64,000 nt of DNA from an uncultured Bacillota bacterium. Its GTDB lineage: Bacteria > Sysuimicrobiota > Sysuimicrobiia > Sysuimicrobiales > Segetimicrobiaceae. The translations under genes were made by a program, and so were the position numbers. The notes beneath the pieces were generated by a model. It had not been told where the DNA came from. It did no database searches and saw nothing but the letters and a program-made list of their open reading frames with translations. The stretch's first letter is position 1. The number at the start of each line of letters is the position of its first letter. This document shows positions 7,899 to 20,647 of this stretch, one piece after another. Location: contig CAWDRG010000004.1 of the NCBI GenBank assembly GCA_963804645.1, positions 1-64,000 of the forward strand, given 5' to 3'.

Positions 7899-8588
7899 GT
7901 GATGACACACCGACGTGTCCCCGGATCATCGGACGCCCTGCTCGCGTGGGCGTGCTTCGCCGTGATGCTGCTCGCCCTGTACGGGGCGTTCGTGTACGCG
8001 GCGCGGGAAGCCGTGATGGGGGACATCCAGCGCATCTTCTACGTGCACCTGCCGCTCGCGTGGGTGGGCTTCGTCGCGTTTGGGCACGCGGCGTGGGCGG
8101 GCGTCCAGTATCTTCGCACGGGACGGCGCGAATGGGACATCGCGAGCGCCTCTGCGGCGGAGGTCGGCGTGCTGTTCGCGACGCTCGTGATCATCACCGG
8201 GTCCCTGTGGGCGCGCCCGGTGTGGGGCACCTGGTGGACGTGGGACCCGCAGCTCGTGACGTACCTGATCCTGTGGCTGATCTACGTCGGGTACCTCGTG
8301 CTGCGCGCCGCGGCGGGCGACGACCCGCGGCAGGCCAGGTTCGCGGCGGTGTTCGCGATCGTGGGCTTCGTCGACGTGCCGCTCGTGTGGCTGTCGGCGC
8401 GCTATCTGCGGGCGCTCAGCCCGGTCGTCTTCACGATGCACAGCGTCGGGCTCGCCCCGTCCATGGTGTGGGCGCTGCTGGCCGGGCTGGTCGCGTGGAG
8501 CCTCCTGTACGTGCTGCTCGTGCGCACGAGGATCCGCCTCGGCATCCTCGACGCCCGCGTGCAGGCGCTGACCGATGCGCGCGCCTAG
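7899..8588 (+). CDS. ccmC: Cytochrome c biogenesis heme exporter CcmC
   Basis: RIFYVHLP and WGTWWTWDPQL (WWD domain), multiple TM helices. Confidence 0.9.
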   Translation: MMTHRRVPGSSDALLAWACFAVMLLALYGAFVYAAREAVMGDIQRIFYVHLPLAWVGFVAFGHAAWAGVQYLRTGRREWDIASASAAEVGVLFATLVIITGSLWARPVWGTWWTWDPQLVTYLILWLIYVGYLVLRAAAGDDPRQARFAAVFAIVGFVDVPLVWLSARYLRALSPVVFTMHSVGLAPSMVWALLAGLVAWSLLYVLLVRTRIRLGILDARVQALTDARA

Positions 8589-8591
8589 ACC

Positions 8592-8747
8592 ATGACGTAT
8601 CTCTTCTGGGCGTTTGCGGTGGTGTGGGTCGGGCTCTTCGTCTACCTCTACGGACTCACGCAGCGGAGCCGGCGGCTTGAGCACGAGCTCGACGCCCTGC
8701 GCGAGGAGCCCCGCACGGCCGCGCCCTCCGACGGAGCGCCCCGGTGA
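8592..8747 (+). CDS. ccmD: CcmD family small membrane protein (51 aa, absent from the ORF track)
   Basis: MTYLFWAFAVVWVGLFVYLYGLTQRSRRLEHELDALRE; lies between ccmC and ccmE with GTGA overlap. Confidence 0.8.
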   Translation: MTYLFWAFAVVWVGLFVYLYGLTQRSRRLEHELDALREEPRTAAPSDGAPR

Positions 8748-9205
8748 GCTCCCTGCAGCCGGCCGCGCCCGATCCGCGCCCCCGGACTCTGGGACGGAGC
8801 GCCCGCCGTACGGCGGTGTTTGTGATCGGGACGATCGTGCTCATCCTTTCGCTCGCGTACCTCGTGTACGGGGGCATTCAGCAGGGGGCCACGTACTGGG
8901 TCACCGTCAGCGAGCTCCAGCAGCGGGCGCCCGGGACGCTGCCGGCCCGGGTGCGCCTCGGCGGGACCGTGCAGCCCGGCACGATCCGGTGGGACGCGTC
9001 CCACCGGCATCTCACGTTCATGGTCACCGACGGCCAGCACGCGCTGCCGGTCGCGTACAGCGGGGTGGTTCCGGACATCTTCGCGGAGGGCCGTCAGGTC
9101 GTGGTCGAGGGGACGCGCGACCCCGGCGGCACGTTCCAGGCGACGACGCTGCTGGCGAAATGTCCGACGAAGTACAACGCGGCGGATCCGGCGCCCTCGC
9201 AGTGA
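8744..9205 (+). CDS. ccmE: Heme chaperone CcmE, Cys-type (CPTKY)
   Basis: VRLGGTV, YSGVVPDIFAEG.VVVEG, LLAKCPTKY. Confidence 0.92.
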   Translation: MSSLQPAAPDPRPRTLGRSARRTAVFVIGTIVLILSLAYLVYGGIQQGATYWVTVSELQQRAPGTLPARVRLGGTVQPGTIRWDASHRHLTFMVTDGQHALPVAYSGVVPDIFAEGRQVVVEGTRDPGGTFQATTLLAKCPTKYNAADPAPSQ

Positions 9206-9232
9206 CGCGCCTCCGCCGCCGGCGAGCCGGCT

Positions 9233-11221
9233 GTGGCTGACCTCGGCCGATTCGCGCTGCTCGGCGCGCTCGCCCTCGCCGTCTATGCGCTCGTGTCCGC
9301 GTCGCTCGGCGCGCGGCTGCGGCGCCCGGAATTGGTTCGAAGCGCCGTGCGCGCGCTCGTCGCCGCCGCGGCGCTTGAAGGGCTCGCCGCCCTGCTGCTC
9401 TGGATCGCGCTCGGCACCCGCGACTATCGGTTCGCCTACGTCGTCACCCACGTCAGCAACGCGCAGCCGCTGATCTACGACCTCACGTCGTTCTGGGGCG
9501 GGATGGAAGGATCGCTGCTGCTCTGGGCGCTGCTGCTCTCCGGGTACACGCTGCTCGCGGTGCGCGGCGTCGGCCGGGTCCGTCCGCCGCTCGTGGGCGG
9601 GGTGACCGCGGTGTGCGCCGGCGTCTCGACGTTTTTCCTGTTCATGCTCGCCTTTGTCACGCCCCCGTTCGTGACGGTGCCGTTCCCGCCGGCCGACGGC
9701 AACGGGATGAACCCGCTCCTGCTCAACCCCTGGATGGCGATCCACCCGCCGACCCTCTACCTGGGGTTCGTCGGGCTCACCGTGCCGTTCGCGATCGTGG
9801 CCGCGACCCTCGCCGCGGGCCCGTCGGGGGAGGGGGGCGTGCTGCTCTCGCGCCGGTGGATGCTGTGGGCGTGGTACTGCCTCAGCATGGGGTTGATGTT
9901 CGGGGCGAAGTGGTCGTACGTGGTGCTGGGGTGGGGCGGGTACTGGGCGTGGGACCCGGTCGAGAACGCCGCGCTGATGCCGTGGCTCGTCGCGACGGCG
10001 TTTCTGCACTCGGTGCAGATCCAAGAGCGCCGCGAGATGCTCACGAAATGGAACGTGGTGCTGGTGATCCTGGCGTTCGGGCTGTCCATCTTCGGCACGT
10101 TTCTGACCCGCAGCGGCGTGTTGAGCAGCATCCACTCGTTCACGCAGTCGTCGCTCGGGACGTTCTTTCTCGGGTTTCTCGCGCTCGCGATGCTCGTCGC
10201 GTTCGGCCTCGCGGCGTGGCGGTGGGACGATCTTCGGAGCCGGAATGAGCTGGACGCCGCGGTCTCGCGCGAGAGTGCGTTCCTCCTCAACAACGTGCTG
10301 TTTCTCGCCGTGGCGTTTTCGGTGTTCCTCGGGACCGTGTTTCCCATCGTGTCCGCGGTCCTGACGGGGCGCGCCATCAACGTGGGCCCGCCGTTCTTCG
10401 ATCACATCGTGGTCCCAATCGCGTTCGCGATCCTGCTGCTGATGGGGATCGGCCCGCTGATCGCCTGGCGGCGCGCGTCCCTCGACAGCCTGCGGCGCGA
10501 TTTCATGGCCCCGGGCGCGGCCGGCGTGCTCGTAGGGGTCGGGTTGCTGCTCGCCGGGATGCGCCAGCCGGGCGCCGTCCTCGTGTTTGCGCTGTGCGGA
10601 TTCGTAGCCGCGACCATCGCGCTCGAGTTCGCCCGGGGCGTGCGGGTGCGCCGCGCGCACCGGGATGAGACCGCCGCGCACGCGCTCCTGGGACTGATCG
10701 CCGGCAACCGCCGGCGCTACGGGGGCTACGTGGTACACCTCGGGATCCTGCTGCTGTTCTGCGGCATTACCGGCTCCTCGGTGTTTGCCACGCAGCAGAT
10801 CGTCACCCTCCGCCCGGGGCAGGGGGCCGCGGTCGGGGAGTACCAGGTCCGGTTCGACGGCCTGACGCAGGCCACGCAGGGCGGCGCGCTGTCGATCGGC
10901 GCACAGCTGCGCGTCTTCGAGGGCGCGCGGGACCTGGGGACGTTTGCCGCCCGCCGCAACATGTTTCTCGCCACCCAGGACTCGACCACCGACGTGGTGC
11001 TGCGGAGCACGCCGCGGGACGATCTGTACATCACGCTGATCGGTTGGACCCAAGACGGCCGCGCGACAATCCGCCTGCTCGTTAACCCGCTCGTGTCGTG
11101 GATGTGGGCCGGCGGCCTCGTGCTGACGCTCGGGGCGGTGCTCGCGATGATTCCCGAGCGGCGTGTGGCACCGGACGACCTCCCCGTGCCCGCAGGGGCG
11201 CTGAGCCCGGGCCGCCCGTGA
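9233..11221 (+). CDS. ccmF: Cytochrome c heme lyase CcmF
   Basis: WGGMEGSLLLW, IHPPTLYLG, LGWGGYWAWDPVENA, RSGVLSSIHSF, NPLVSWMW. Confidence 0.96.
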   Translation: MADLGRFALLGALALAVYALVSASLGARLRRPELVRSAVRALVAAAALEGLAALLLWIALGTRDYRFAYVVTHVSNAQPLIYDLTSFWGGMEGSLLLWALLLSGYTLLAVRGVGRVRPPLVGGVTAVCAGVSTFFLFMLAFVTPPFVTVPFPPADGNGMNPLLLNPWMAIHPPTLYLGFVGLTVPFAIVAATLAAGPSGEGGVLLSRRWMLWAWYCLSMGLMFGAKWSYVVLGWGGYWAWDPVENAALMPWLVATAFLHSVQIQERREMLTKWNVVLVILAFGLSIFGTFLTRSGVLSSIHSFTQSSLGTFFLGFLALAMLVAFGLAAWRWDDLRSRNELDAAVSRESAFLLNNVLFLAVAFSVFLGTVFPIVSAVLTGRAINVGPPFFDHIVVPIAFAILLLMGIGPLIAWRRASLDSLRRDFMAPGAAGVLVGVGLLLAGMRQPGAVLVFALCGFVAATIALEFARGVRVRRAHRDETAAHALLGLIAGNRRRYGGYVVHLGILLLFCGITGSSVFATQQIVTLRPGQGAAVGEYQVRFDGLTQATQGGALSIGAQLRVFEGARDLGTFAARRNMFLATQDSTTDVVLRSTPRDDLYITLIGWTQDGRATIRLLVNPLVSWMWAGGLVLTLGAVLAMIPERRVAPDDLPVPAGALSPGRP

Positions 11222-11564: not shown

Positions 11565-12542
11565 GTGCGTCCTTCGTGGAGGGGGGCCCGTTGGGCCCTC
11601 CTCCTCTGTCTGGTCGTGTGCGCGGCGCTGGGATCGGTGCCCGTGTCGTCCGCCGACGGGCCGGGCGGGCTGATTCGCGGGCACGTGCTCGATCGGACCT
11701 CGGCCGTCCGCGCCGTCGCCAGGCAGCCGGTGCGTCTCGAGATCGTCGAGCGCGGCTCGACCTCGGAGCGCCTCACGGTCACGGACGCGCGCGGGGCGTT
11801 CGCGTTCCCCGGCCTGCCGGTGGGCGGCGGCGTGCCGCGCGTGTTCCTCGTCCGGACTGAGTATCAGGGCGTGCCGTACGGCACGCGGGTGGAGTTGGCC
11901 GCCGAGACACCGACGCAGACGGCCGACCTCGACGTGTATCAAGCGACGCGCGACCACGCGGCCGTGCACGGCACGATCGCGTTCGCCGTGGTGGAGACAA
12001 GCCAGGGCGCGGTGCGGATCAGCGTCATCCAGCGTTTGGAAAACACGACCCGCCGCGCGGTCGTGGGGAGCGATGCCGACCCCCTCGTCTTCCCGCTGCC
12101 CCTCGGCGCGCAGGCGGTCGAACTGATCGGAGGGTGGCAGCACCCGCAGGTCGCGCACGGGGCGATCACCGACGCGATCGCCGTCCCGCCCGGGGTGCTC
12201 CAGGTCGGCTACGCGTACGACCTCGCGCCCCGCGCCAGCCGGTTCACCGTCGACTGGGCCCTACCGTACGGGGCCGCCGACGTCGAGATGTTGGTCAACG
12301 ATCCCGCGCTCATCCTCTCGGGCGCCGGGGTGCGGCGCGCGGGCGTGGTCGCGGACTCCGGCCGGCATTTCACGCGGTGGTCCGCCGGAGCGGTGCCGCG
12401 CGGCGGGGAGATCGCGTGGACATTCGACGGGCTCGCCGGACGGGACGACCGCTGGCCGGCAAGTGCGGCGATCGTGCTGTGCGTGCTGCTCGGGGGCGGG
12501 CTCACCGCGGCGCTGCGGCACCGCCCGGCGGCGGCGTCCTAG
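11565..12542 (+). CDS. Membrane-anchored carboxypeptidase-regulatory-like domain protein, paralog 2
   Basis: Signal peptide, PVRLEIVERGSTSERLTVTDARGAFAFPGLP, C-terminal TM; paralog of 6063..7136. Confidence 0.75.
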   Translation: MRPSWRGARWALLLCLVVCAALGSVPVSSADGPGGLIRGHVLDRTSAVRAVARQPVRLEIVERGSTSERLTVTDARGAFAFPGLPVGGGVPRVFLVRTEYQGVPYGTRVELAAETPTQTADLDVYQATRDHAAVHGTIAFAVVETSQGAVRISVIQRLENTTRRAVVGSDADPLVFPLPLGAQAVELIGGWQHPQVAHGAITDAIAVPPGVLQVGYAYDLAPRASRFTVDWALPYGAADVEMLVNDPALILSGAGVRRAGVVADSGRHFTRWSAGAVPRGGEIAWTFDGLAGRDDRWPASAAIVLCVLLGGGLTAALRHRPAAAS

Positions 12543-12724: not shown

Positions 12725-13594
12725 ATGCTGAGAGGGTTATGGGTGCGTCCTCGAGCAACCCTGCTGGTGCTCGCGGCGGCCGTCGCGGCCGCCGGATGCC
12801 AACCGCAGGTCAGCGTCGAGCGGACGCGGACATCCGTCGCGCTGCCGCCGACGCAGGAGGTCGAGATCGCGCTCGTGGCCGATGAACAGGGGCACCCGAT
12901 CACGCCCGACGCGGTGCACGGGAAGCAGGTCTTCGATGCCAACTGCGCCGTGTGCCACGGGATGTCGGGGAAAGGGAACGGCCCCATGGCGCCGACGCTC
13001 GTCGAACCCCAGCATGACGTGCTGGCCGCGCTCGTGGGCCTGTTTGGGATCACGGTGCACCGCCCGAATTTGCCGAGCAGCCCGGCGGACTTCACCAACC
13101 GGGATCTTGAGAGCGTGATCACCCCGGCGATCATGTACCAGACGGTGACCCAGGGACGCGCGTACACGGCGATGCCGGCGTTCGGGCCGCAGGCGTCGTT
13201 CGGGGCGAACCAGGCGCAGCAGTTGACCAACGCGCAGCGGTGGGACGCGAACGTGTACGAGATGATGTTCCGGACCTCGCCGGAGGCGCTCAGCGCGGCG
13301 AAGCAGGTGTACGACGCGCAGTGCGCGCAGTGCCACGGGATGAACGGCGACGGCAAGGGGCCCCGGGGCGCCGAGATGGGCGCGCAGGTCTGGACGTGGG
13401 CGCACGGCACGGGACCGGGCATCTTCACCGACATCAACTACATGGTGCAGCGGAACGGCGCGGATCTGGCGAACGAGATCGCAGACGGCAATGGGATCAT
13501 GCCGAGCTACCGCGGCAAGCTGACCCCGGCGCAGGTGAACGGGCTCGTGGACTACGTCTACACGTTCTTTTACAAACACCCAGCGATCCAGTAG
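12725..13594 (+). CDS. Diheme cytochrome c lipoprotein
   Basis: Lipobox AAAGC; CAVCH and CAQCH, each followed by a MPAF/MPSY Met ligand motif; RBS GAGGAG. Confidence 0.9.
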   Translation: MLRGLWVRPRATLLVLAAAVAAAGCQPQVSVERTRTSVALPPTQEVEIALVADEQGHPITPDAVHGKQVFDANCAVCHGMSGKGNGPMAPTLVEPQHDVLAALVGLFGITVHRPNLPSSPADFTNRDLESVITPAIMYQTVTQGRAYTAMPAFGPQASFGANQAQQLTNAQRWDANVYEMMFRTSPEALSAAKQVYDAQCAQCHGMNGDGKGPRGAEMGAQVWTWAHGTGPGIFTDINYMVQRNGADLANEIADGNGIMPSYRGKLTPAQVNGLVDYVYTFFYKHPAIQ

Positions 13595-13635: not shown

Positions 13636-14313
13636 ATGAAGCTCGAGAGGCGGGGGCTGATCAAGACGCTGGTGGCGATCCCGGTGATCGGGACGATCAT
13701 TGCGTTACTGTCCCCGCTGTTCCGGTTTCTGAAGCCGAACGACGGCGCGTGGAACATCTTCACGATCAAGCCGGACCTGCCCGCGGGCGGCGCCCAGGTC
13801 GTGGGGCGGGTGTCGCAGCTGGCGAAGCCGTGGGACTCGTTCTACTTCACCTACGTCCAGAAGTTCGTGCAGTACGATCCCGAGGGCGAAGAGGCGAGCA
13901 ACGTCCCAGGGGTCGCGATCCGGCTGCCGCAGAAGGTGAATTTCACCAACGCCGAGGGGTTTGTAGGGTTTCAGGGGGAGACCGACATCGTGTTGTTCTC
14001 GCGAATCTGCCCGCACCTCGGCTGCATCTTCAACTATGTCAGCGACTACCACGAGGTCACGGCGGGGTACGGGGGGATGGAACCACCGGCCTCCGAGCAC
14101 CACGCGCTGATGGCGTGCCCGTGTCACTTCAGCATCTACGATCCGACGTATCCCGGCGACCCCGGCAACGTGATCTCGGGGCCGGCTCCTCGGGGCGCGC
14201 GGTACTTCCAGTTCGAGATCCAGGGTGACAACATCGTCGTCACCGGCGCCGAAGTCGGCGCGATCGCGAAGGCACGGCCGAGCCGCGCGCAGGCGCCGCG
14301 CGGCGACGCCTGA
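13636..14313 (+). CDS. Rieske [2Fe-2S] subunit of a cytochrome bc-type complex
   Basis: Tat-like ERRGLIK plus TM; CPHLGC and CPCHFS boxes; GPAPR. Confidence 0.95.
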   Translation: MKLERRGLIKTLVAIPVIGTIIALLSPLFRFLKPNDGAWNIFTIKPDLPAGGAQVVGRVSQLAKPWDSFYFTYVQKFVQYDPEGEEASNVPGVAIRLPQKVNFTNAEGFVGFQGETDIVLFSRICPHLGCIFNYVSDYHEVTAGYGGMEPPASEHHALMACPCHFSIYDPTYPGDPGNVISGPAPRGARYFQFEIQGDNIVVTGAEVGAIAKARPSRAQAPRGDA

Positions 14314-14337: not shown

Positions 14338-15495
14338 GTGGCGGTGGAGGCGGTCCTCGCAAATCTCAAGGAGTGGTTCCAGGACCGAAAGCAGCACCTG
14401 GACCTCTTCGACGAGACGAAAACCGGGAAACAGGACAACCCGCTGTACATCCTCGGGAACCTGGTCTGGCTGTCGTGGATGGCTGTGATCGTCTCCGGGA
14501 TCGTGCTGATGCTCTGGTACATCCCGACAACGACCGGCGCGTACCGCTCGATCCAGCACATCACCCTCGACCTTCCGTTCGGCTGGCTCGTGCGCGGCGT
14601 GCACAAATACGGCGGCGACATGCTGATCACGGTGATCACGCTGCGGATCTACCGGATGTACTTCGCGGGCGAGTATAAGAAGCCGGGCGAGCTGTCGTGG
14701 ATGATCCTGTTCCTCTCCCTCGTGCTGGCGATGGTCTCGGGGGTCACCGGGTACACGCTCGAGTGGAACCAGCGCGCGTTCTGGGCGGCGAAGGTCATCC
14801 TGACCGTCCCGACCTACTACGACCAGATCCCGCTCGTGGGGAACCTCGGGCTCGGGCACGCGATCGCGTACATCTTCCTCGGCGGTCCGGCGCTCGGCCA
14901 GGGGACGCTCACCCGGTTCTACGCGATCCACTTCGGCATCTCGATCATCGCCGTGATCATCATTGAGATGTTCGTCTACCGGACGCGGCGCCGGCACCTC
15001 AACCTGTCGGCGTTCGCGATCGTCCTCGTCCTCGTGTTTCTCGCGTTCGTGAGCTTCATGAACCTGGCGGACGTCGGCGACTGGGCGAACAACAACCGCA
15101 CGCCGCTGCCGGTCCTGTCCGACTGGTACTTCCTGGCGCTGTACCAGGTCGTGAAATACATGCCGCCGCTGTGGGCGGGGGTGGCGCCGGCGCTGCTGAT
15201 CGGCTACGGCATGCTGGTGCCGTTCCTCGACCGGACGAAGGAGACGCGGGCGACGGAGCGGCCGTTCTTCTTCGTGATCGGGCTGCTCGCGCTCGCCTAC
15301 TGGATCGGATTCAGCGCGCTCATCCTGCTGAACATCGCGGTCATCTCGCGGGATCCGCCGATCATCTGGGGGATCACCGTCGTGGTCTGCCTGCTCGCGT
15401 TCGTCTGGGAGATGGGGTACCGGCGGCGCAAGGCGCAGCGTGCCGCGGCGCAGGCCGCGGCCCGCGCCGCGGCACGGCCCGCCGGGGCGGCGTAG
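14338..15495 (+). CDS. Cytochrome b subunit 1 (b6 plus subunit IV type fusion) retaining only two of the four heme His ligands
   Basis: WLVRGVHKYGGD, TGYTLEWNQRAFWA, TRFYAIHF, SDWYF (PEWY equivalent); the +14 positions are Arg and Phe instead of His. Confidence 0.9.
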   Translation: MAVEAVLANLKEWFQDRKQHLDLFDETKTGKQDNPLYILGNLVWLSWMAVIVSGIVLMLWYIPTTTGAYRSIQHITLDLPFGWLVRGVHKYGGDMLITVITLRIYRMYFAGEYKKPGELSWMILFLSLVLAMVSGVTGYTLEWNQRAFWAAKVILTVPTYYDQIPLVGNLGLGHAIAYIFLGGPALGQGTLTRFYAIHFGISIIAVIIIEMFVYRTRRRHLNLSAFAIVLVLVFLAFVSFMNLADVGDWANNNRTPLPVLSDWYFLALYQVVKYMPPLWAGVAPALLIGYGMLVPFLDRTKETRATERPFFFVIGLLALAYWIGFSALILLNIAVISRDPPIIWGITVVVCLLAFVWEMGYRRRKAQRAAAQAAARAAARPAGAA

Positions 15496-15496
15496 C

Positions 15497-15814
15497 ATGC
15501 GGCGGAAGCACTTGTTCTACGTCCTACTCGCCGCGGCCACGTTCGGGCTGAGCGAATTCTTGGCCGCCTGGCGCGCGTGGCGGGCGGCCCCGACGCTCGA
15601 TGCCGCCGCGGCCGTGGTGGCGCTCGCGGTGGGCCTCGTCGCCGTGATGCTGTGGCTCGGGTTCCTGCTGTACGAGGTGGACCGCGCGGCGGGGCGGATT
15701 CGCCGCCCGGTGGGCCTCTACGAGTGGGTGCTGGCGCGGCGCGCGCCCGACCGGCCGGCGGGATGGACCGGCGGCGGCGCCGCCGGACACGGCGGGGGGA
15801 GGGGAACGGCGTGA
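15497..15814 (+). CDS. Small membrane protein (2 TM)
   Basis: Two hydrophobic segments; starts 1 nt after the cyt b stop. Confidence 0.6.
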   Translation: MRRKHLFYVLLAAATFGLSEFLAAWRAWRAAPTLDAAAAVVALAVGLVAVMLWLGFLLYEVDRAAGRIRRPVGLYEWVLARRAPDRPAGWTGGGAAGHGGGRGTA

Positions 15815-16005
15815 GTGACCGCGCGTCCGCGTACACGATGTGGATCGTGCTCTTGTCGGCGCTGAGCTTCGTGTGCGTGCTCGGGATGGTGTGGGGCGAA
15901 CTGATGAACCATCATCACGTGACCGCGGCGCTGATCGGCGTGGTCCTGCTGGCGTACTCGTTCATCCTGCTGCTGCTGCGCAAGGGGGGATTCACGGGTG
16001 TATAA
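15811..16005 (+). CDS. Small membrane protein (2 TM, HHH in loop)
   Basis: GGAGG RBS, GTGA overlap; WIVLLSALSFVCVLGMVW..NHHH..ALIGVVLLAYSFILLLL. Confidence 0.65.
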   Translation: MSDRASAYTMWIVLLSALSFVCVLGMVWGELMNHHHVTAALIGVVLLAYSFILLLLRKGGFTGV

Positions 16006-17155
16006 GCGGGCGCTCGGCCGGCTGCTCGACGCGACGCTGCGGCTGGACACCGTCGTCGGGCGGGTCTACCCGGACGATTTCAACCCGCTGTACTACACGG
16101 GCGGTCTCGCGAACCTGTTCCTGACCATCCTCGTCCTGTCCGGGATCTTTCTGTTCTTCTATTACGTGCCGTCGTTCAACGACGCGTACGCGTCGGTCCA
16201 GTTCCTGACCGTGAACGTGCCGTACGGCCAGATCATCCGCGGGATTCACCGCTACGCGGCGGACGGCTTCATCATCGTCATTTTGCTGCACTTCTTCCGC
16301 AACTGGTTCACCGAAAGGTTCCGGTTCTCGCGGGACGAGCCGTGGATCAGCGGGATGATGCTGCTGGCCTTCGCCGGCTTTATCGGCGTGACCGGCTACA
16401 TTCTCGTCTGGGACCAGCGCAGCGAGGCGCTGGTCGCGATGACCGGCAACGCGGCCTCCCACGTGCCGCTGGTCGGCGGGTGGCTGCGGGACGCGCTGTT
16501 CGGGGGCGCGGGGCTGACGGACCTCCTCCTGCCGCGCATCCTGTTCCTCCACGTCGGCCCGGCGGTCGCGCTGTACGTGTTCCTCTGGTGGCACTACACC
16601 CGCATCCGGGCGCCGAAGGTGTGGCCGCCCGCGGTGTGGACCCTGTTTGCGCTCGGGTTCATCCTGCTGCTGACCGGGCTCTTGCCGGTGACCAGCCAGC
16701 CGGCGGCCTCGGCCCTGCAGCCGCCCACGGGCTTCGCCGTGGACTGGCTGTTCCTGTCGCCCTACTGGGCGCTCCGCGTGCTGCCGCCGCTGGTGCTGGT
16801 GGCGCTCGGGGTCGTGCTGGTCGCGTACGGGCTGTACATCCCGTACCAGCTGCCGGAGACCCGCGCGGAACTCGGGATCAAGGACTCGGGAGTCGCGCAG
16901 GTGCTCGACGCGAACTGCACCGGCTGCGAGCTGTGCTACTACGACTGCCCGTACAACGCGATCGTGATGGTGCCCTCGCCGAACCCCGGGGTGACCAAGG
17001 CGGCGCAGGCCCGGAAGCTGCGCGCCGTCGTGCTGGAGTCCCGCTGCGTCGAATGCGGGATCTGCGTCGGGGCCTGCCCGTTTGAGGCGCTCGAACTTCC
17101 GGGGTATCTCCAAGTGGACATCCAGAAGAAGGTGTTGAGCGCATGCCAGAGCTAA
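15998..17155 (+). CDS. Cytochrome b subunit 2 fused to a C-terminal 2x[4Fe-4S] ferredoxin domain
   Basis: H-x13-H pairs HRYAADGFIIVILLH and HVGPAVALYVFLWWH; CTGCELCYYDCP and CVECGICVGACP. Confidence 0.9.
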   Translation: MYKRALGRLLDATLRLDTVVGRVYPDDFNPLYYTGGLANLFLTILVLSGIFLFFYYVPSFNDAYASVQFLTVNVPYGQIIRGIHRYAADGFIIVILLHFFRNWFTERFRFSRDEPWISGMMLLAFAGFIGVTGYILVWDQRSEALVAMTGNAASHVPLVGGWLRDALFGGAGLTDLLLPRILFLHVGPAVALYVFLWWHYTRIRAPKVWPPAVWTLFALGFILLLTGLLPVTSQPAASALQPPTGFAVDWLFLSPYWALRVLPPLVLVALGVVLVAYGLYIPYQLPETRAELGIKDSGVAQVLDANCTGCELCYYDCPYNAIVMVPSPNPGVTKAAQARKLRAVVLESRCVECGICVGACPFEALELPGYLQVDIQKKVLSACQS

Positions 17156-17679
17156 CGGGAACGGGCACCCCCCAGACGCCGCAGAGCGCGCCCGCGGCGC
17201 GCGGCGCCCGCATCGTCGGATTCTTGTGCGACTGGGCGGTTGCGTCCGACGGCCTCGTGCGCGACGACGGCACGATGCGGGATCTGCCCGGCGTCACGCT
17301 GATCAAGATCCCGTGCTCGGGGTTTACGCGGCCCGCGTGGCTGGAGTTTGCGCTCCGCAACGGCGCCGAGGGGGTCTTCGTCTGCGGCTGTCCGCTCGGC
17401 GACTGCTTCAACCGCTACGGCAACAACCTCATCGGCGACCGCGTCGAGCAGCTGCGTCGGCGTCTCGAGCGTCAGCGCATCAATCCTGAGCGCATCGGGG
17501 CGATCTTCTACCGGCGCGACGCGCAGGCGGAGTTCGTGAGCGCGGTCCGTGCGTTCGCGGAGAAGGTGGCCGGGCTGCCGGGCCCGGTGCTGCCCCCGGC
17601 GAGACCGCCGGCCGCCCCGCGCGGGGCCGCGCCCGCCAAGCCCGCGGAGGCCCCGGCCCCCGAACAGGAGGGAACATAA
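17143..17679 (+). CDS. MvhD/FlpD-like [2Fe-2S] protein (hydrogenase iron-sulfur subunit family)
   Basis: IVGFLCDW, IKIPCSG, GAEGVFVCGCPLGDCFNRYGN, INPERI. Confidence 0.85.
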   Translation: MPELTGTGTPQTPQSAPAARGARIVGFLCDWAVASDGLVRDDGTMRDLPGVTLIKIPCSGFTRPAWLEFALRNGAEGVFVCGCPLGDCFNRYGNNLIGDRVEQLRRRLERQRINPERIGAIFYRRDAQAEFVSAVRAFAEKVAGLPGPVLPPARPPAAPRGAAPAKPAEAPAPEQEGT

Positions 17680-17864: not shown

Positions 17865-18881
17865 TTGCGGCGAGAACTGACCACCCCCATGGAACTCGGC
17901 CAGATCTACGCGCCCGTGCAGGAGGACCTTCTCGCGCTGGACGCGCTGCTGCGCGCGGAGCTCGTCAGCGACGATCCGTTCATCGGGGAGCTGGTCGCGC
18001 ACGTCCTCAGCACGCACGGCAAGATGATTCGTCCGGCCCTCGTGTGCCTGAGCGCCCTCGCCGGCGCGGCGGAGCCGGCCGACCGCCCCCCCGCGCGCCT
18101 CGAGATCTCGGGGGCCGTCGAGCTGATCCACGTCGCCTCGCTCGTGCACGACGACGTCATCGACGTCGCGGATCTGCGCCGCGGGCAGGCGACCGTCAAC
18201 TCGCTGTGGGGGAACCAGGTGGCGGTGCTGCTGGGCGACTATCTGTTCAGCAAGGCGTTTCATCTGCTCGCCCGCCTGCGCGCCGCGGAGCTCGCCGCGG
18301 CGATGGCGTGGGCGACGGTGCGGATGAGTCAGGCCGAAATCAAGCAGATCAAATACGGAAACACGGCGCATACCGACGAGGCGATCTACTTCGACATCAT
18401 CGAGGGGAAGACCGCGCAGCTGATGAGCGCCGCGTGCCGCTGCGGAGCGATGACGGCCGGGGCCGACGCCCGCGCGGTCGAGGCCCTTGCCGCGTTCGGC
18501 TTGGAGTGGGGCATGGCGTTCCAGATCACCGACGACGCGCTCGACGTCACGTCGAGCACCTCCTCGCTCGGCAAGCCGATCGGCAGCGACATTCAAACGG
18601 GCAAGGTGACGCTGCCCGTCATCCACGCGCTGCGGCGCGCGCCCGAGGCCGACCGCCGCCGCCTCGAGACGATGCTGGCGGCGGCGAACGGGGACGCCCG
18701 GGACGGGGATCCCGGAGAGATCCGGGAGATCCTCTCGCGCAGCGGCGCCGTGGAGTACGCGCTCGGGGTCGCCCGCACACGGGCGGCCCGCGCGGCCGCG
18801 GCCCTCGAGCCGCTGCGCGACTCGCCGGCCCGGCGCAGTCTCGGCGCCCTCGTCGAGTTCGTGACCGCGCGCACGAGCTAG
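17865..18881 (+). CDS. Polyprenyl diphosphate synthase (quinone side chain; HepT/IspB-like)
   Basis: GKMIRP, HDDVID..RRG (FARM), GKTA, FQITDDALD (SARM). Confidence 0.93.
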   Translation: MRRELTTPMELGQIYAPVQEDLLALDALLRAELVSDDPFIGELVAHVLSTHGKMIRPALVCLSALAGAAEPADRPPARLEISGAVELIHVASLVHDDVIDVADLRRGQATVNSLWGNQVAVLLGDYLFSKAFHLLARLRAAELAAAMAWATVRMSQAEIKQIKYGNTAHTDEAIYFDIIEGKTAQLMSAACRCGAMTAGADARAVEALAAFGLEWGMAFQITDDALDVTSSTSSLGKPIGSDIQTGKVTLPVIHALRRAPEADRRRLETMLAAANGDARDGDPGEIREILSRSGAVEYALGVARTRAARAAAALEPLRDSPARRSLGALVEFVTARTS

Positions 18882-18890
18882 GCCGCGGCG

Positions 18891-20069
18891 ATGCGCACTC
18901 CGGCGGTGGTGGACGGGCAACGGGGCCCCCGGCCGGCGGAGGCCCCGGGACCGTGGCGGCGCCTTCGGGACGGCCTGTTTCGTCTGGCGGTGCACACGAC
19001 GAGCGCCCATCTCGCGCGGCACGCGGGCGCGATCGTGGCGCGCTGGCACGCGTCGCTGCGGGACGCGGTGCCCCGCTACCGCGACGCCGCCGAGACCTCC
19101 GCGTGGGGCGTCGAGGAGCTGCGGGTGCTGCTGGCGGTGGCCCGCGCGTGGACCGCCGAGGAGCAGGCCGAGGCGCGCGAGGCGGTGTTTCGCACCGCGC
19201 GCGCGGTCGCGGGCGAGCAGCTCCGGGGCGAGTTTTCGCTCGGCGAGATCCAGCAGGCGCTGGCCCTCTTCCGGCTGGCCGTCCTGGGAGAGATCCAGCG
19301 CATGCTCCGCCGGCGCCTCTGGCTCGCGTTCCCGTGGGACGTGATGCGCGTCGCCGACCGCTTGAACGAAGCGATCGACCTGGAGCTGCTGGCGATCGGG
19401 CAGGCGTACCTCGACGAGCGCGCGGAGGTCATCCGGGAGCGGGAGCAGGAACTCGTCGCGGGAAACGAGCAGCTCCGGACCCTGCTTCAGGAGATGCACC
19501 ACCGCATCAAGAACAATCTGCAGACCCTCGCCGACCTGCTCTATCTGGAAGGGCATGACGCCGGCTCGGCCGAGGTCCGCGATCACCTGCGCGACAGCCT
19601 GGCGCGCGTCAAGAGCATCGCCACCGTGCACCGGTTGCTGTCGCTGGATCACATTGGAGAAGCCGACGCGCGGCGCCTCGCCGAGGCGATCGCGGCCACC
19701 GTCTGCGGGGACCTCGGGACGCCTCGGACCCAGGTCGAGGTCCGGGTGGATGGGGCGCCGGTCCTGCTGCCGAGCAAACAGGCCACATCGCTCGCGCTGG
19801 TGCTCGGGGAGCTGATCACGAACGCCATGGAGCATGCGTTCGCCGGGCGCCCCCGGGGTGCGATCGTCGTGACCCTCGACGAGCACGACGGAGAGGTCGG
19901 GCTCGTCGTGCGGGACGACGGGGTGGGGCTCCCGGACGGGCTCGATCCCCAGCGGGTCGACAGTCTCGGGCTGTCGATCGTGCGCACGCTCGTGTCGCGG
20001 GATCTTGGCGGCCGCCTGCGCATGTGGGTCGACGGCGGCACGGTCGCGGAGGTGACGTTTCGCCGATGA
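18891..20069 (+). CDS. Cytoplasmic sensor histidine kinase, HisKA_2 (PdtaS/EutW-like)
   Basis: EMHHRIKNNLQ H-box, ELITNAMEHAF, DDGVGLP, SLGLSIV. Confidence 0.9.
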   Translation: MRTPAVVDGQRGPRPAEAPGPWRRLRDGLFRLAVHTTSAHLARHAGAIVARWHASLRDAVPRYRDAAETSAWGVEELRVLLAVARAWTAEEQAEAREAVFRTARAVAGEQLRGEFSLGEIQQALALFRLAVLGEIQRMLRRRLWLAFPWDVMRVADRLNEAIDLELLAIGQAYLDERAEVIREREQELVAGNEQLRTLLQEMHHRIKNNLQTLADLLYLEGHDAGSAEVRDHLRDSLARVKSIATVHRLLSLDHIGEADARRLAEAIAATVCGDLGTPRTQVEVRVDGAPVLLPSKQATSLALVLGELITNAMEHAFAGRPRGAIVVTLDEHDGEVGLVVRDDGVGLPDGLDPQRVDSLGLSIVRTLVSRDLGGRLRMWVDGGTVAEVTFRR

Positions 20070-20647
20070 CGGATCCGGCGCGCATCCTGATCGCCGATGA
20101 CGAGGCGATCCGCCTGATGACGCTCAAGCGGCAGCTCGCCGCGTTGGGGATGGACGTTGTGGCCGAGGCGACCACGGGGCGCGAGGCCGTGGCGCTCGCG
20201 CGCGACACCGCGCCGGATCTCGCGATCCTCGATATCAAGATGGCGGAGCTGGACGGCATCGAGGCGGCGCGGGCGATCACGCGCGAGCGGCCGATCCCGA
20301 TCATCCTGCTGACGGCGTATTCCGATCAGGGCCTGATCGAGCGGGCCGCGGCCGCCGGCGTGTTCGCCTATCTCGTGAAGCCGGTCGGCGAGGAGGATCT
20401 TCTGCCCGCGATCTTGACCGCCCGGACGCGGTTCCGGGAGTTCCACGCGCTGCGCGGCGAGGTGGCGTCGCTCGGCGACGCCCTCGAGGCGCGCAAGGTG
20501 ATCGAGCGCGCGAAGGGGATGTTGATGGATCGGTTTCGCCTGAGCGAAGCCGAGGCGTTTCGCCGCATGCAGATCCAGAGCCAGCGTGAGAACAAGCGCC
20601 TCGTCGAGATCGCCCGGGCGCTGCTCGCGGCGCCTCCGACGCCCTGA
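20066..20647 (+). CDS. ANTAR-domain response regulator (PdtaR/EutV-like)
   Basis: REC domain (ADDE, LDIKM, YLVKP) plus RKVIERAKGMLM..SEAEAFRRMQ. Confidence 0.93.
   Translation: MTDPARILIADDEAIRLMTLKRQLAALGMDVVAEATTGREAVALARDTAPDLAILDIKMAELDGIEAARAITRERPIPIILLTAYSDQGLIERAAAAGVFAYLVKPVGEEDLLPAILTARTRFREFHALRGEVASLGDALEARKVIERAKGMLMDRFRLSEAEAFRRMQIQSQRENKRLVEIARALLAAPPTP

Follow-up and report, generated by a model that had tools for sequence, protein, structure and literature searches.

Cytochromes b of the canonical kind, as found in bc1, b6f and Firmicute-type bc complexes, hold their two haems, bL and bH, with four His, which Kao and Hunte treated as invariable in a survey from which sequences without them were removed (PMC4122944). 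Two partial exceptions are a Pyrobaculum cytochrome b without the fourth His (PMC4122944) and a short cyanobacterial "subfamily K", in which Glu or Gln stands for the helix-2 His and the bn glycine is missing (PMC5600118); each has lost one ligand, is limited to one genus or phylum, and has no described partner. Here we analyze a 64-kb window (the first 64,000 nucleotides of contig CAWDRG010000004.1, from an uncultured bacterium of Candidatus Sysuimicrobiota; 69.8% G+C) and within it a gene, named here b1, whose cytochrome b keeps both bL ligands and has no His at either bH position. In contrast to the exceptions above, b1 belongs to a family in which both positions are without His, and which occurs in several phyla with a fixed set of partner genes. 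It shares with canonical cytochromes b the fold, the domains, the bL ligands, an ef-loop motif resembling that of the quinol-oxidation (Qo) site, and a neighboring Rieske protein and c-type cytochrome, but differs from them in lacking the bH His residues and the CxGG Cys, in reading SDWY for PEWY or PDWY, in an N-terminal DxFDE motif, and in having as its partner a second, different cytochrome b, named here b2. That b1 comes paired with b2 suggests that complex III of the respiratory chain has a lopsided form for which we found no description.

The electron hop between the two bL haems is the "bus-bar" of bc1, and Rhodobacter fusion dimers of bc1, cross-inactivated in their two halves, were reportedly described by Czapla et al. 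in 2013. In such dimers one monomer has no usable bH path and the other no usable Qo site, leaving the bL-to-bL step as the only route, a situation that resembles the one proposed below. Engineered bc1 dimers with the cross-dimer route alone sustain growth (Ekiert et al. 2014, PMC4152375); they are laboratory mutants of one gene in tandem, whereas b1 and b2 are two natural and anciently diverged genes (28% identity), the second with an iron-sulfur arm. The Chlamydomonas QiKO b6f resembles b1 as a Rieske/cytochrome b complex without haem bh, and although it lacks both haems bh and ci it oxidizes quinol well enough for growth (Malnoe et al. 2011, PMC3112540); QiKO was made by engineering in a strain deficient in a protease and has no partner cytochrome b, whereas the b1 family is natural and conserved. 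The anammox complexes (Kuste4569-4574 and Kustd1480-1485) likewise have a Rieske/cytochrome b core wired to cytoplasmic iron-sulfur clusters and a high-potential Rieske with Ser (and Tyr), and their low-potential electron has been proposed to serve cytoplasmic reduction (PMC12954380). In the models of these complexes the core is a homodimer that has every haem, and a cytoplasmic NAD(P) oxidoreductase is attached, whereas the arm in the window consists of a ferredoxin domain fused to b2 and an MvhD-like protein; a subunit binding FAD and NAD is absent from the window cluster and present in one Caldisericia locus.

14338..15495, + strand: cytochrome b1, the main gene (Pfam PF00033 and PF00032, alignments with structures of the Protein Data Bank, conservation, AlphaFold2 model, Foldseek)

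The open reading frame (ORF) encodes a protein of 385 residues, an eight-helix cytochrome b of the type in which b6 and subunit IV are fused. An in-frame GTG at 14344 appears a likelier start than the GTG at 14338, because a GGGAGGG stretch resembling a ribosome-binding site abuts 14338 and the N-termini of homologues match 14344. The N-terminal domain matches the Pfam family Cytochrome_B (PF00033) with 109.5 bits (cut-off 27.2; E 2.4e-31), and the C-terminal domain matches PF00032 (cytochrome b/subunit IV) with 26.2 bits over residues 250-319 (cut-off 20.7; E 9.9e-06). Among solved structures the best relatives found with HMMER are cytochromes b6 (1vf5_A, E 5.1e-37), and subunit IV chains of b6f align with the C-terminal part (E 1.8e-07). 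The AlphaFold2 model (predicted local distance difference test, pLDDT, 84.8; predicted template-modelling score, pTM, 0.86) retrieves bc1 cytochromes b as top Foldseek matches (E 4e-11; template-modelling score over the query, TMq, 0.65-0.70). No NCBIfam model reaches its cut-off, the best being cytochrome b6 NF002990 with 139.6 bits against 325, and alignment with solved b6 places Ile at the CxGG Cys of haem cn (fyClgg in b6 versus lyIlgn in b1). By fold and domains b1 is a cytochrome b, yet one without the four His, and so a variant and not a standard member.

The positions that a preceding sequence-only reading had given for the ligand codons of b1 were all exact. CAC at 14602 encodes His89, a bL ligand, and CGG at 14644 encodes Arg103, 14 residues further on and two substitutions from any His codon; CAC at 14929 encodes His198, the other bL ligand, which is followed at +13 to +15 by Met211, Phe212 and Val213, with no His at +12 to +15 in helix D; and the PEWY equivalent of the ef loop is S261-D262-W263-Y264. 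In the HMMER alignment with solved b6, b6 His100 lies opposite Arg103 and b6 His202 opposite Met211, while MAFFT sets the canonical helix-D His opposite Glu210 and an ungapped helix puts Phe212 at +14. Every register tried thus leaves the predicted helix-D bH position without a His, and the stretch of helix D from one ligand position to the other has two or three residues fewer than its counterpart in b6-type proteins. The claim of that reading that b1 has lost both bH ligands and kept the bL ligands is confirmed by these alignments and by the conservation described below. A further Qo-type feature is the helix-C motif GYxLxWNQ.

A sequencing or assembly error, which the sequence-only reading had thought unlikely, is ruled out by the close homologues (120 proteins with 59-86% identity to b1), all 120 of which have His89, Arg103, His198 and Glu210, and by a matching independent contig. 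For the latter, contigs from four peat-metagenome runs of two studies, one run possibly being the window's own source, were compared with the b1 gene. The contig of run X2 spans 14539-15035 of b1 with 0 differences, and across the four runs none of the differences listed (29 further ones being unlisted) hits any of the four ligand-position codons. The search for an alternative His ligand turned to His220 in the RRRHL motif, which is also ruled out as a substitute, being Arg in 117/120 close homologues; and none of the 120 retains four His, so that neither check refuted the proposed loss. A salt bridge between Arg103 and Glu210 might take the place of the His-Fe-His link, which we mention as an idea only; it draws on the near-invariance of the two residues and on the MAFFT alignment of Glu210 with the canonical His, where HMMER aligns Met211 instead.

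The same pattern extends to distant relatives. In a search of 1.84 billion protein cluster representatives, the 23 best (P0121-P0143, E 4e-109 to 1e-39) have Arg or Lys at position 103 in all 22 that cover the column, and proteins with four His start at the rank directly below. A scan of one genome per species yielded 80 loci, 53 of the b1 family and 27 canonical. At position 103, 48 of the family loci have Arg and the other 5 have Lys, versus His in 27/27 canonical loci, which have all four His in 27/27 and PEWY in 26/27. His89, Gly54, Gly135 and Gly138 are present in 53/53 family loci, His198 in 51/51, Glu210 in 50/50 covered rows, and D262-W263-Y264 in 50/50 covered loci, where the preceding residue is Ser in 47, Pro in 2 and Ala in 1; SDWY is absent from the main text of PMC4122944, and the described variants of the PEWY motif are PDWY, PVWY and PPWF. 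The Gly on the negative side (N-side) of helix C is found in 27/27 canonical loci versus only 10/53 of the family, and the candidate ligand residues 211-213 vary within the family, position 212 being Tyr in 33 of the 53 loci and His in L021. The DxFDE motif is common to the family and absent from the canonical rows. Judged from these sequences, loss of both bH ligands is a trait of the b1 family. A sub-group with a His at +14 in helix D, in the motif E-x-H-F, comprises L021 and the representatives P0123, P0125, P0126, P0127 and P0134, and might represent either an intermediate stage or a return to the earlier state.

The 53 genome loci place the b1 family in at least six phyla. By record titles, the carriers are Candidatus Sysuimicrobiota (CSP1-3, with Armatimonadetes or "ANGP1" as the label in some records), Melainabacteria (Vampirovibrionales and Obscuribacterales), metagenome-assembled genomes (MAGs) of Deinococcales, Holophagaceae, Anaerolineae, Caldisericia, and one MAG of Planctomycetota. 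Within the window's phylum, an orthologue of b1 (E <= 1e-80) occurs in 80/94 genomes and 28/31 genera. Among the genomes of that phylum at least 90% complete, PF00033 matches at only two places, b1 and b2, in 23/60, and 20 of these 23 have both places on the same contig at a distance of 1-2 kb; G017 and G025, two genomes flagged as unpublished, are counted in both phylum tallies. In addition to b1 and b2, the window's own genome (G000, 96.8% complete) has two canonical operons, each with a Rieske gene and a cytochrome b-c fusion:

Contigs C22 (L001) and C11 (L002): canonical operons with four His, PDWY, and cytochrome b fused to a C-terminal c-type cytochrome

In each canonical operon the cytochrome b gene lies no more than about 3 kb from a gene for oxidase subunit I, and the genome has four haem-copper oxidase subunit I genes in all. 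As to its quinone pathway, there is no match to MqnA or MqnD, and MenB and MenD match only below the cut-offs. In the RNA runs of a shared sample, next to none of the search words is present.

In the window, b1 stands in a cluster with the following features, listed with those that flank it:

7899-11221: Ccm haem-lyase genes
11565-12542, + strand: protein of 325 residues (weak match, CarboxypepD_reg-like), encoded after the Ccm genes and before the dihaem cytochrome c
12725..13594, + strand: dihaem cytochrome c with two CxxCH motifs, a probable lipoprotein (Pfam Cytochrome_CBB3, E 2.1e-21, and Cytochrom_C, E 1.1e-18, both matching over two stretches)
13636..14313, + strand: Rieske [2Fe-2S] protein (motif CPHLGC ... 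CPCHFSIY)
15497..15814, + strand: sm1, small predicted two-helix membrane protein (ORF, hydropathy)
15838..16005, + strand: sm2, small predicted two-helix membrane protein (ORF, hydropathy)
15998..17155, + strand: cytochrome b2 (PF00033 8e-30, Fer4 4.9e-11, Fer4_7 1.2e-09)
17143..17679, + strand: MvhD/FlpD-like iron-sulfur protein (PF02662 3.4e-23; the sole PF02662 match in the genome)
17865..18881, + strand: polyprenyl synthetase (PF00348 4e-69)
18891-20647, + strand: HisKA_2 histidine kinase and response regulator with an ANTAR RNA-binding output, 3' of the cluster

The partner protein b2 has six predicted helices, the haem ligands His84, His98, His185 and His199, and a fused C-terminal 2x[4Fe-4S] ferredoxin domain, which should lie on the cytoplasmic side. 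The four His and the eight Cys are present in 43/43 orthologues of b2. Its ef-loop motif is degenerate among orthologues (xxDWFF, xDVFF) with the Asp retained, it lacks helices G and H, and it has Tyr at the CxGG Cys position of haem cn. Where at least 3 kb of flank extend beyond b1, as in 40 of the 53 family loci, b2 is found in 39/40 (37 downstream, and 2 upstream, in Caldisericia) and MvhD follows b2 in 38/40; four shorter loci also have b2, and the other nine end within 560 bp of b1. The sole such locus without b2 is L020, from a Vampirovibrionales MAG, in which the 7 kb downstream of b1 hold no match to b2, ferredoxin or MvhD. A Rieske gene was detected by tblastn beside b1 in 50/53 family loci. 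A tree was built from 71 rows (20 family loci picked for spread out of the 53, all 27 canonical ones, b1 and b2 of the window, and the two canonical proteins of its genome). In it, the 21 rows of b1 make up one split and the 21 of b2 another, both with a support of 99 in the Shimodaira-Hasegawa-like approximate likelihood-ratio test (SH-aLRT), and their inner branching is broadly similar.

Both bH positions of b1 being without His, and this loss being conserved, the sequences support the earlier claim that b1 alone cannot run a normal Q cycle. As a tentative reading, which we hold to be possible rather than probable, we propose that b1 is the quinol-oxidizing half of an asymmetric Rieske/cytochrome b complex with two different cytochromes b, in which one electron leaves b2 through the iron-sulfur arm. 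In such a complex, b1 would provide the Qo-type pocket, the outer haem bL and the Rieske partner and, having no inner haem, would have no quinone-reduction site of its own. Quinol would be oxidized on b1, with one electron passing to the Rieske cluster and on to the dihaem cytochrome c; the second would pass to bL of b1, cross between the subunits to the bL haem of b2, and go on to bH of b2, from which it would leave through the fused 2x[4Fe-4S] domain to the MvhD-like protein and some cytoplasmic acceptor. We propose a b1:b2 dimer with a bL-to-bL hop as the simplest solution because b1 should be able to oxidize quinol and load bL yet has no bH and thus no route across the membrane. What we infer from this arrangement is that b1 and b2 share a dimer, that the electron passes between the bL haems, which way it flows, and what accepts it. 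The hand-over from bL to bL of a partner cytochrome b, already suggested in the sequence-only reading, fits the 39/40 synteny, the conserved ligands and Cys of b2, the similar trees and the heterodimer prediction described next, and stands as a proposal drawn from the gene neighborhood. Also in favor of the asymmetric complex are the bL ligands and Qo-type features kept by b1, the frequent replacement of the N-side Gly of helix C, the growth of bc1 dimers with the cross-dimer route alone, and two findings given below, the one-way dependence of b1 on b2 and the Ser and Tyr pair of the family Rieske proteins.

A prediction of the b1:b2 heterodimer scored 0.58, against 0.00 for the best of three controls, with at least 68% of the contacts in agreement between runs and a partner pLDDT of at least 76. 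A score of 0.58 is reached by 116/157 solved complexes and 2/215 mismatches, and scores of 0.60 or below comprise only 18/157 solved complexes together with both mismatches, so that the support it lends is weak.

Several points weigh against an asymmetric complex of this kind. The heterodimer score may reflect mere likeness to solved cytochrome b homodimers, which were present in the training data. In b2, D249 at the PEWY position is invariant, making a second Qo-like pocket possible. In b1, Gly40 of helix A, which we take to be the glycine facing bH, is invariant (53/53 family loci), and a His at +14 of helix D occurs in 1/53 loci (L021) and 5/20 representative clusters, with Arg103 retained. 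By rough arithmetic, a quinol of the menaquinone type would only marginally suffice to bring an electron to the negative side and onto a carrier around -320 mV or below. Finally, if b1 and b2, as the only PF00033 matches in 23/60 near-complete genomes, are the sole complex III there, every second electron would need an abundant cytoplasmic sink, and a quinone-reducing site on b2 would be simpler.

A stronger form of the asymmetric complex, which is doubtful, is an obligately heterodimeric complex III with true quinol bifurcation. One electron, taking the high-potential branch through the Rieske protein to cytochrome c and oxygen, would drive the second through bL of one subunit and both haems of the other into a chain of cytoplasmic iron-sulfur clusters, which would reduce a low-potential carrier. 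Box II of the family Rieske proteins reads CPCH[LF]S[IV]Y, and the Ser and Tyr pair is present in 48/50 of the family Rieske genes found by motif, versus 0/27 of the canonical ones; the two canonical Rieske proteins of the window's genome have CPCHGGVF and CPCHGGVY. These Ser and Tyr residues hydrogen-bond the cluster, and their mutation lowered the potential of the yeast Rieske protein by 130 and 65 mV; for the anammox complexes, a high Rieske potential has been proposed to imply a very low bL potential (PMC12954380). Of the cytoplasmic side, the Caldisericia MAG locus L054 (121-6508) may show the partner of the arm, its order being Rieske, b2 with ferredoxin domain, MvhD, Fer4, Fer4_22, a protein binding FAD and NAD (domains DHODB_Fe-S_bind, NAD_binding_1 and FAD_binding_6), and b1, with no match to a c-type cytochrome. 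In the window, a domain search among the neighbors of b1 gave no subunit binding FAD or NAD(P). The Ser and Tyr of the Rieske protein, together with the NAD-binding neighbor in Caldisericia, favor bifurcation with the low-potential electron being used outward, in line with the anammox proposal.

The alternative that fares best keeps the b1:b2 heterodimer and the bL-to-bL step and, in a split Q cycle with one Qo and one quinone-reduction (Qi) site, lets the electron end at a Qi site near bH of b2; the ferredoxin domain and MvhD would then form a side branch feeding or bleeding bH or the quinone site, like the ferredoxin input proposed for b6f. We regard it as unlikely on balance. It would suit the 23 genomes in which b1 and b2 are the only PF00033 matches, where the pair is probably the everyday complex III, and b2 keeps Gly119 on the N-side of helix C as well as conserved N-side Arg residues. 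Cross-inactivated bc1, left with a single Qo site and the Qi site opposite to it, is able to sustain growth (PMC4152375), and an input from ferredoxin at the N-side of b6f has been discussed (PMC5600118). However, b2 has neither helices G and H nor the CxGG Cys for haem cn, and a plain Q cycle needs neither a hard-wired iron-sulfur fusion conserved in 43/43 orthologues nor a Rieske protein with Ser and Tyr.

Relatives of b2 bear on another possibility, that b1 and the Rieske protein form a stand-alone quinol:cytochrome c oxidoreductase without a Q cycle, much like the Chlamydomonas QiKO b6f, and b2, its ferredoxin domain and MvhD a separate transmembrane wire serving a haem-copper oxidase. Fused forms of about 700 residues (39 proteins) join a cytochrome b to 2x[4Fe-4S] and in many cases also to MvhD/FlpD. 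In the 80 metagenome loci of the fused form (L098-L177; for example L162:4461-8515, L177:4248-8446 and L138:3401-8470) there is no Rieske motif (0/80) and no separate b1 (0/80). Those with at least 3 kb upstream have haem-copper oxidase subunit I (COX1) in 43/43 and an SCO1-like gene in 33/43, frequently in the order COX1, SCO1, fused gene. Within the b1 family, the whole cluster follows cbb3-type oxidase genes (CcoN and CcoO-c) in L023, L024 and L055, one each from Melainabacteria, Deinococcales and Planctomycetota, with a weak COX1 match (E 7e-20) in the Planctomycetota locus L055. The dependence is one-way: the iron-sulfur wire of b2 occurs without b1, and b1 almost never without b2. Two separate complexes are distinctly unlikely. 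With enough flank, b2 is missing beside b1 in just 1/40 loci, and both trees branch broadly alike. A homodimer with bL alone could pass its second electron only to back-reactions, which would be odd for a family present in 80/94 genomes of the phylum.

Improbable, too, is a reversed flow, with electrons from a cytoplasmic reductant entering through MvhD and the ferredoxin domain to the b2 haems and from there to bL and the Qo pocket of b1, or to c-type cytochromes or the oxidase. The NAD(P)H-to-quinone direction was judged wasteful by the authors of the anammox proposal (PMC12954380), and such a flow would leave unexplained why b1 strictly retains a Qo-type pocket, a Rieske partner with a high-potential signature, and bL. 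In its favor, this direction is downhill for a low-potential donor; the two Fer4 proteins and the FAD/NAD-binding protein that lie between b2-MvhD and b1 in L054 link the arm to pyridine nucleotides; and the fused relatives adjoin oxidase genes without a quinol-oxidizing Rieske protein.

That b1 is a normal two-haem cytochrome b with unconventional ligands, for example Lys or Arg103 with Tyr212, Glu210 or Met211, is highly improbable: Gly40 is invariant, position 212 is Tyr in 33/53 loci and His in L021, and Lys103 occurs in 5/53, but 48/53 have at position 103 an Arg, to our knowledge never a haem ligand, helix D has two or three residues fewer between the ligand positions than b6-type proteins have, the N-side Gly of helix C is replaced in 43/53, and residues 211-213 are variable.

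Apart from b1 and b2, the cluster has several recurrent members. The dihaem cytochrome c, whose start was set at MLRGLWV, has tblastn matches in most b1-family loci and probably serves the cluster as its high-potential acceptor. The window's Rieske protein, recognized by its motif, has a weak Pfam Rieske match (E 0.0096, below the cut-off). Possible accessory subunits are sm1, which matches no Pfam or NCBIfam family and has tblastn matches that lie between b1 and b2 in L009, L012, L013 and L021, among other loci, and sm2, which matches no NCBIfam family and has tblastn matches in L008, L009, L011, L013 and L051. The 325-residue protein also lies 5' of the cluster in L005, L010, L012 and L046 (tblastn). 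The polyprenyl synthetase gene is kept 3' of MvhD in loci of the window's phylum (tblastn matches in L007-L013, L015, L016, L018 and L051), and its membership in the system is uncertain. The histidine kinase and the ANTAR-type regulator could regulate the cluster.

Members of the family have been seen before under other names: the Melainabacteria copies were annotated as "cytochrome b6f" subunits or as a "complex III/IV" fusion, the ligands going unmentioned in the relevant parts of that paper (PMC6349859), and in the main text of the paper on Sysuimicrobiota the terms "cytochrome b", "Rieske" and "complex III" are all absent (PMC11604079). Full-text searches, which covered main texts mostly from outside the subscription journals, gave no published description of the b1 family. 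The exclusion of sequences without four His from the cytochrome b survey (PMC4122944) is maybe part of why the family has gone unremarked. The contribution of the window is a member of the b1 family that coexists with two canonical complexes, together with the Rieske signature, the phylum-wide tallies, and the fused relatives adjacent to oxidase genes.

If b1 and b2 do form an asymmetric complex, it would be a natural counterpart of the laboratory construct, in which only the cross-dimer path from bL to bL joins quinol oxidation to the chain, with an added iron-sulfur exit or entry on the cytoplasmic side. The physiological role of electron transfer between monomers would then be directly testable, as would the question of whether quinol bifurcation can feed cytoplasmic carriers, an idea put forward for anammox bacteria that still awaits proof. 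A bifurcating complex III, if true, would be a respiratory source of reducing power that does not depend on running electrons backward through complex I, and would be present in most members of one soil phylum and in non-photosynthetic relatives of the cyanobacteria. The asymmetric complex would in either case bear on how CSP1-3/Sysuimicrobiota and Melainabacteria respire.

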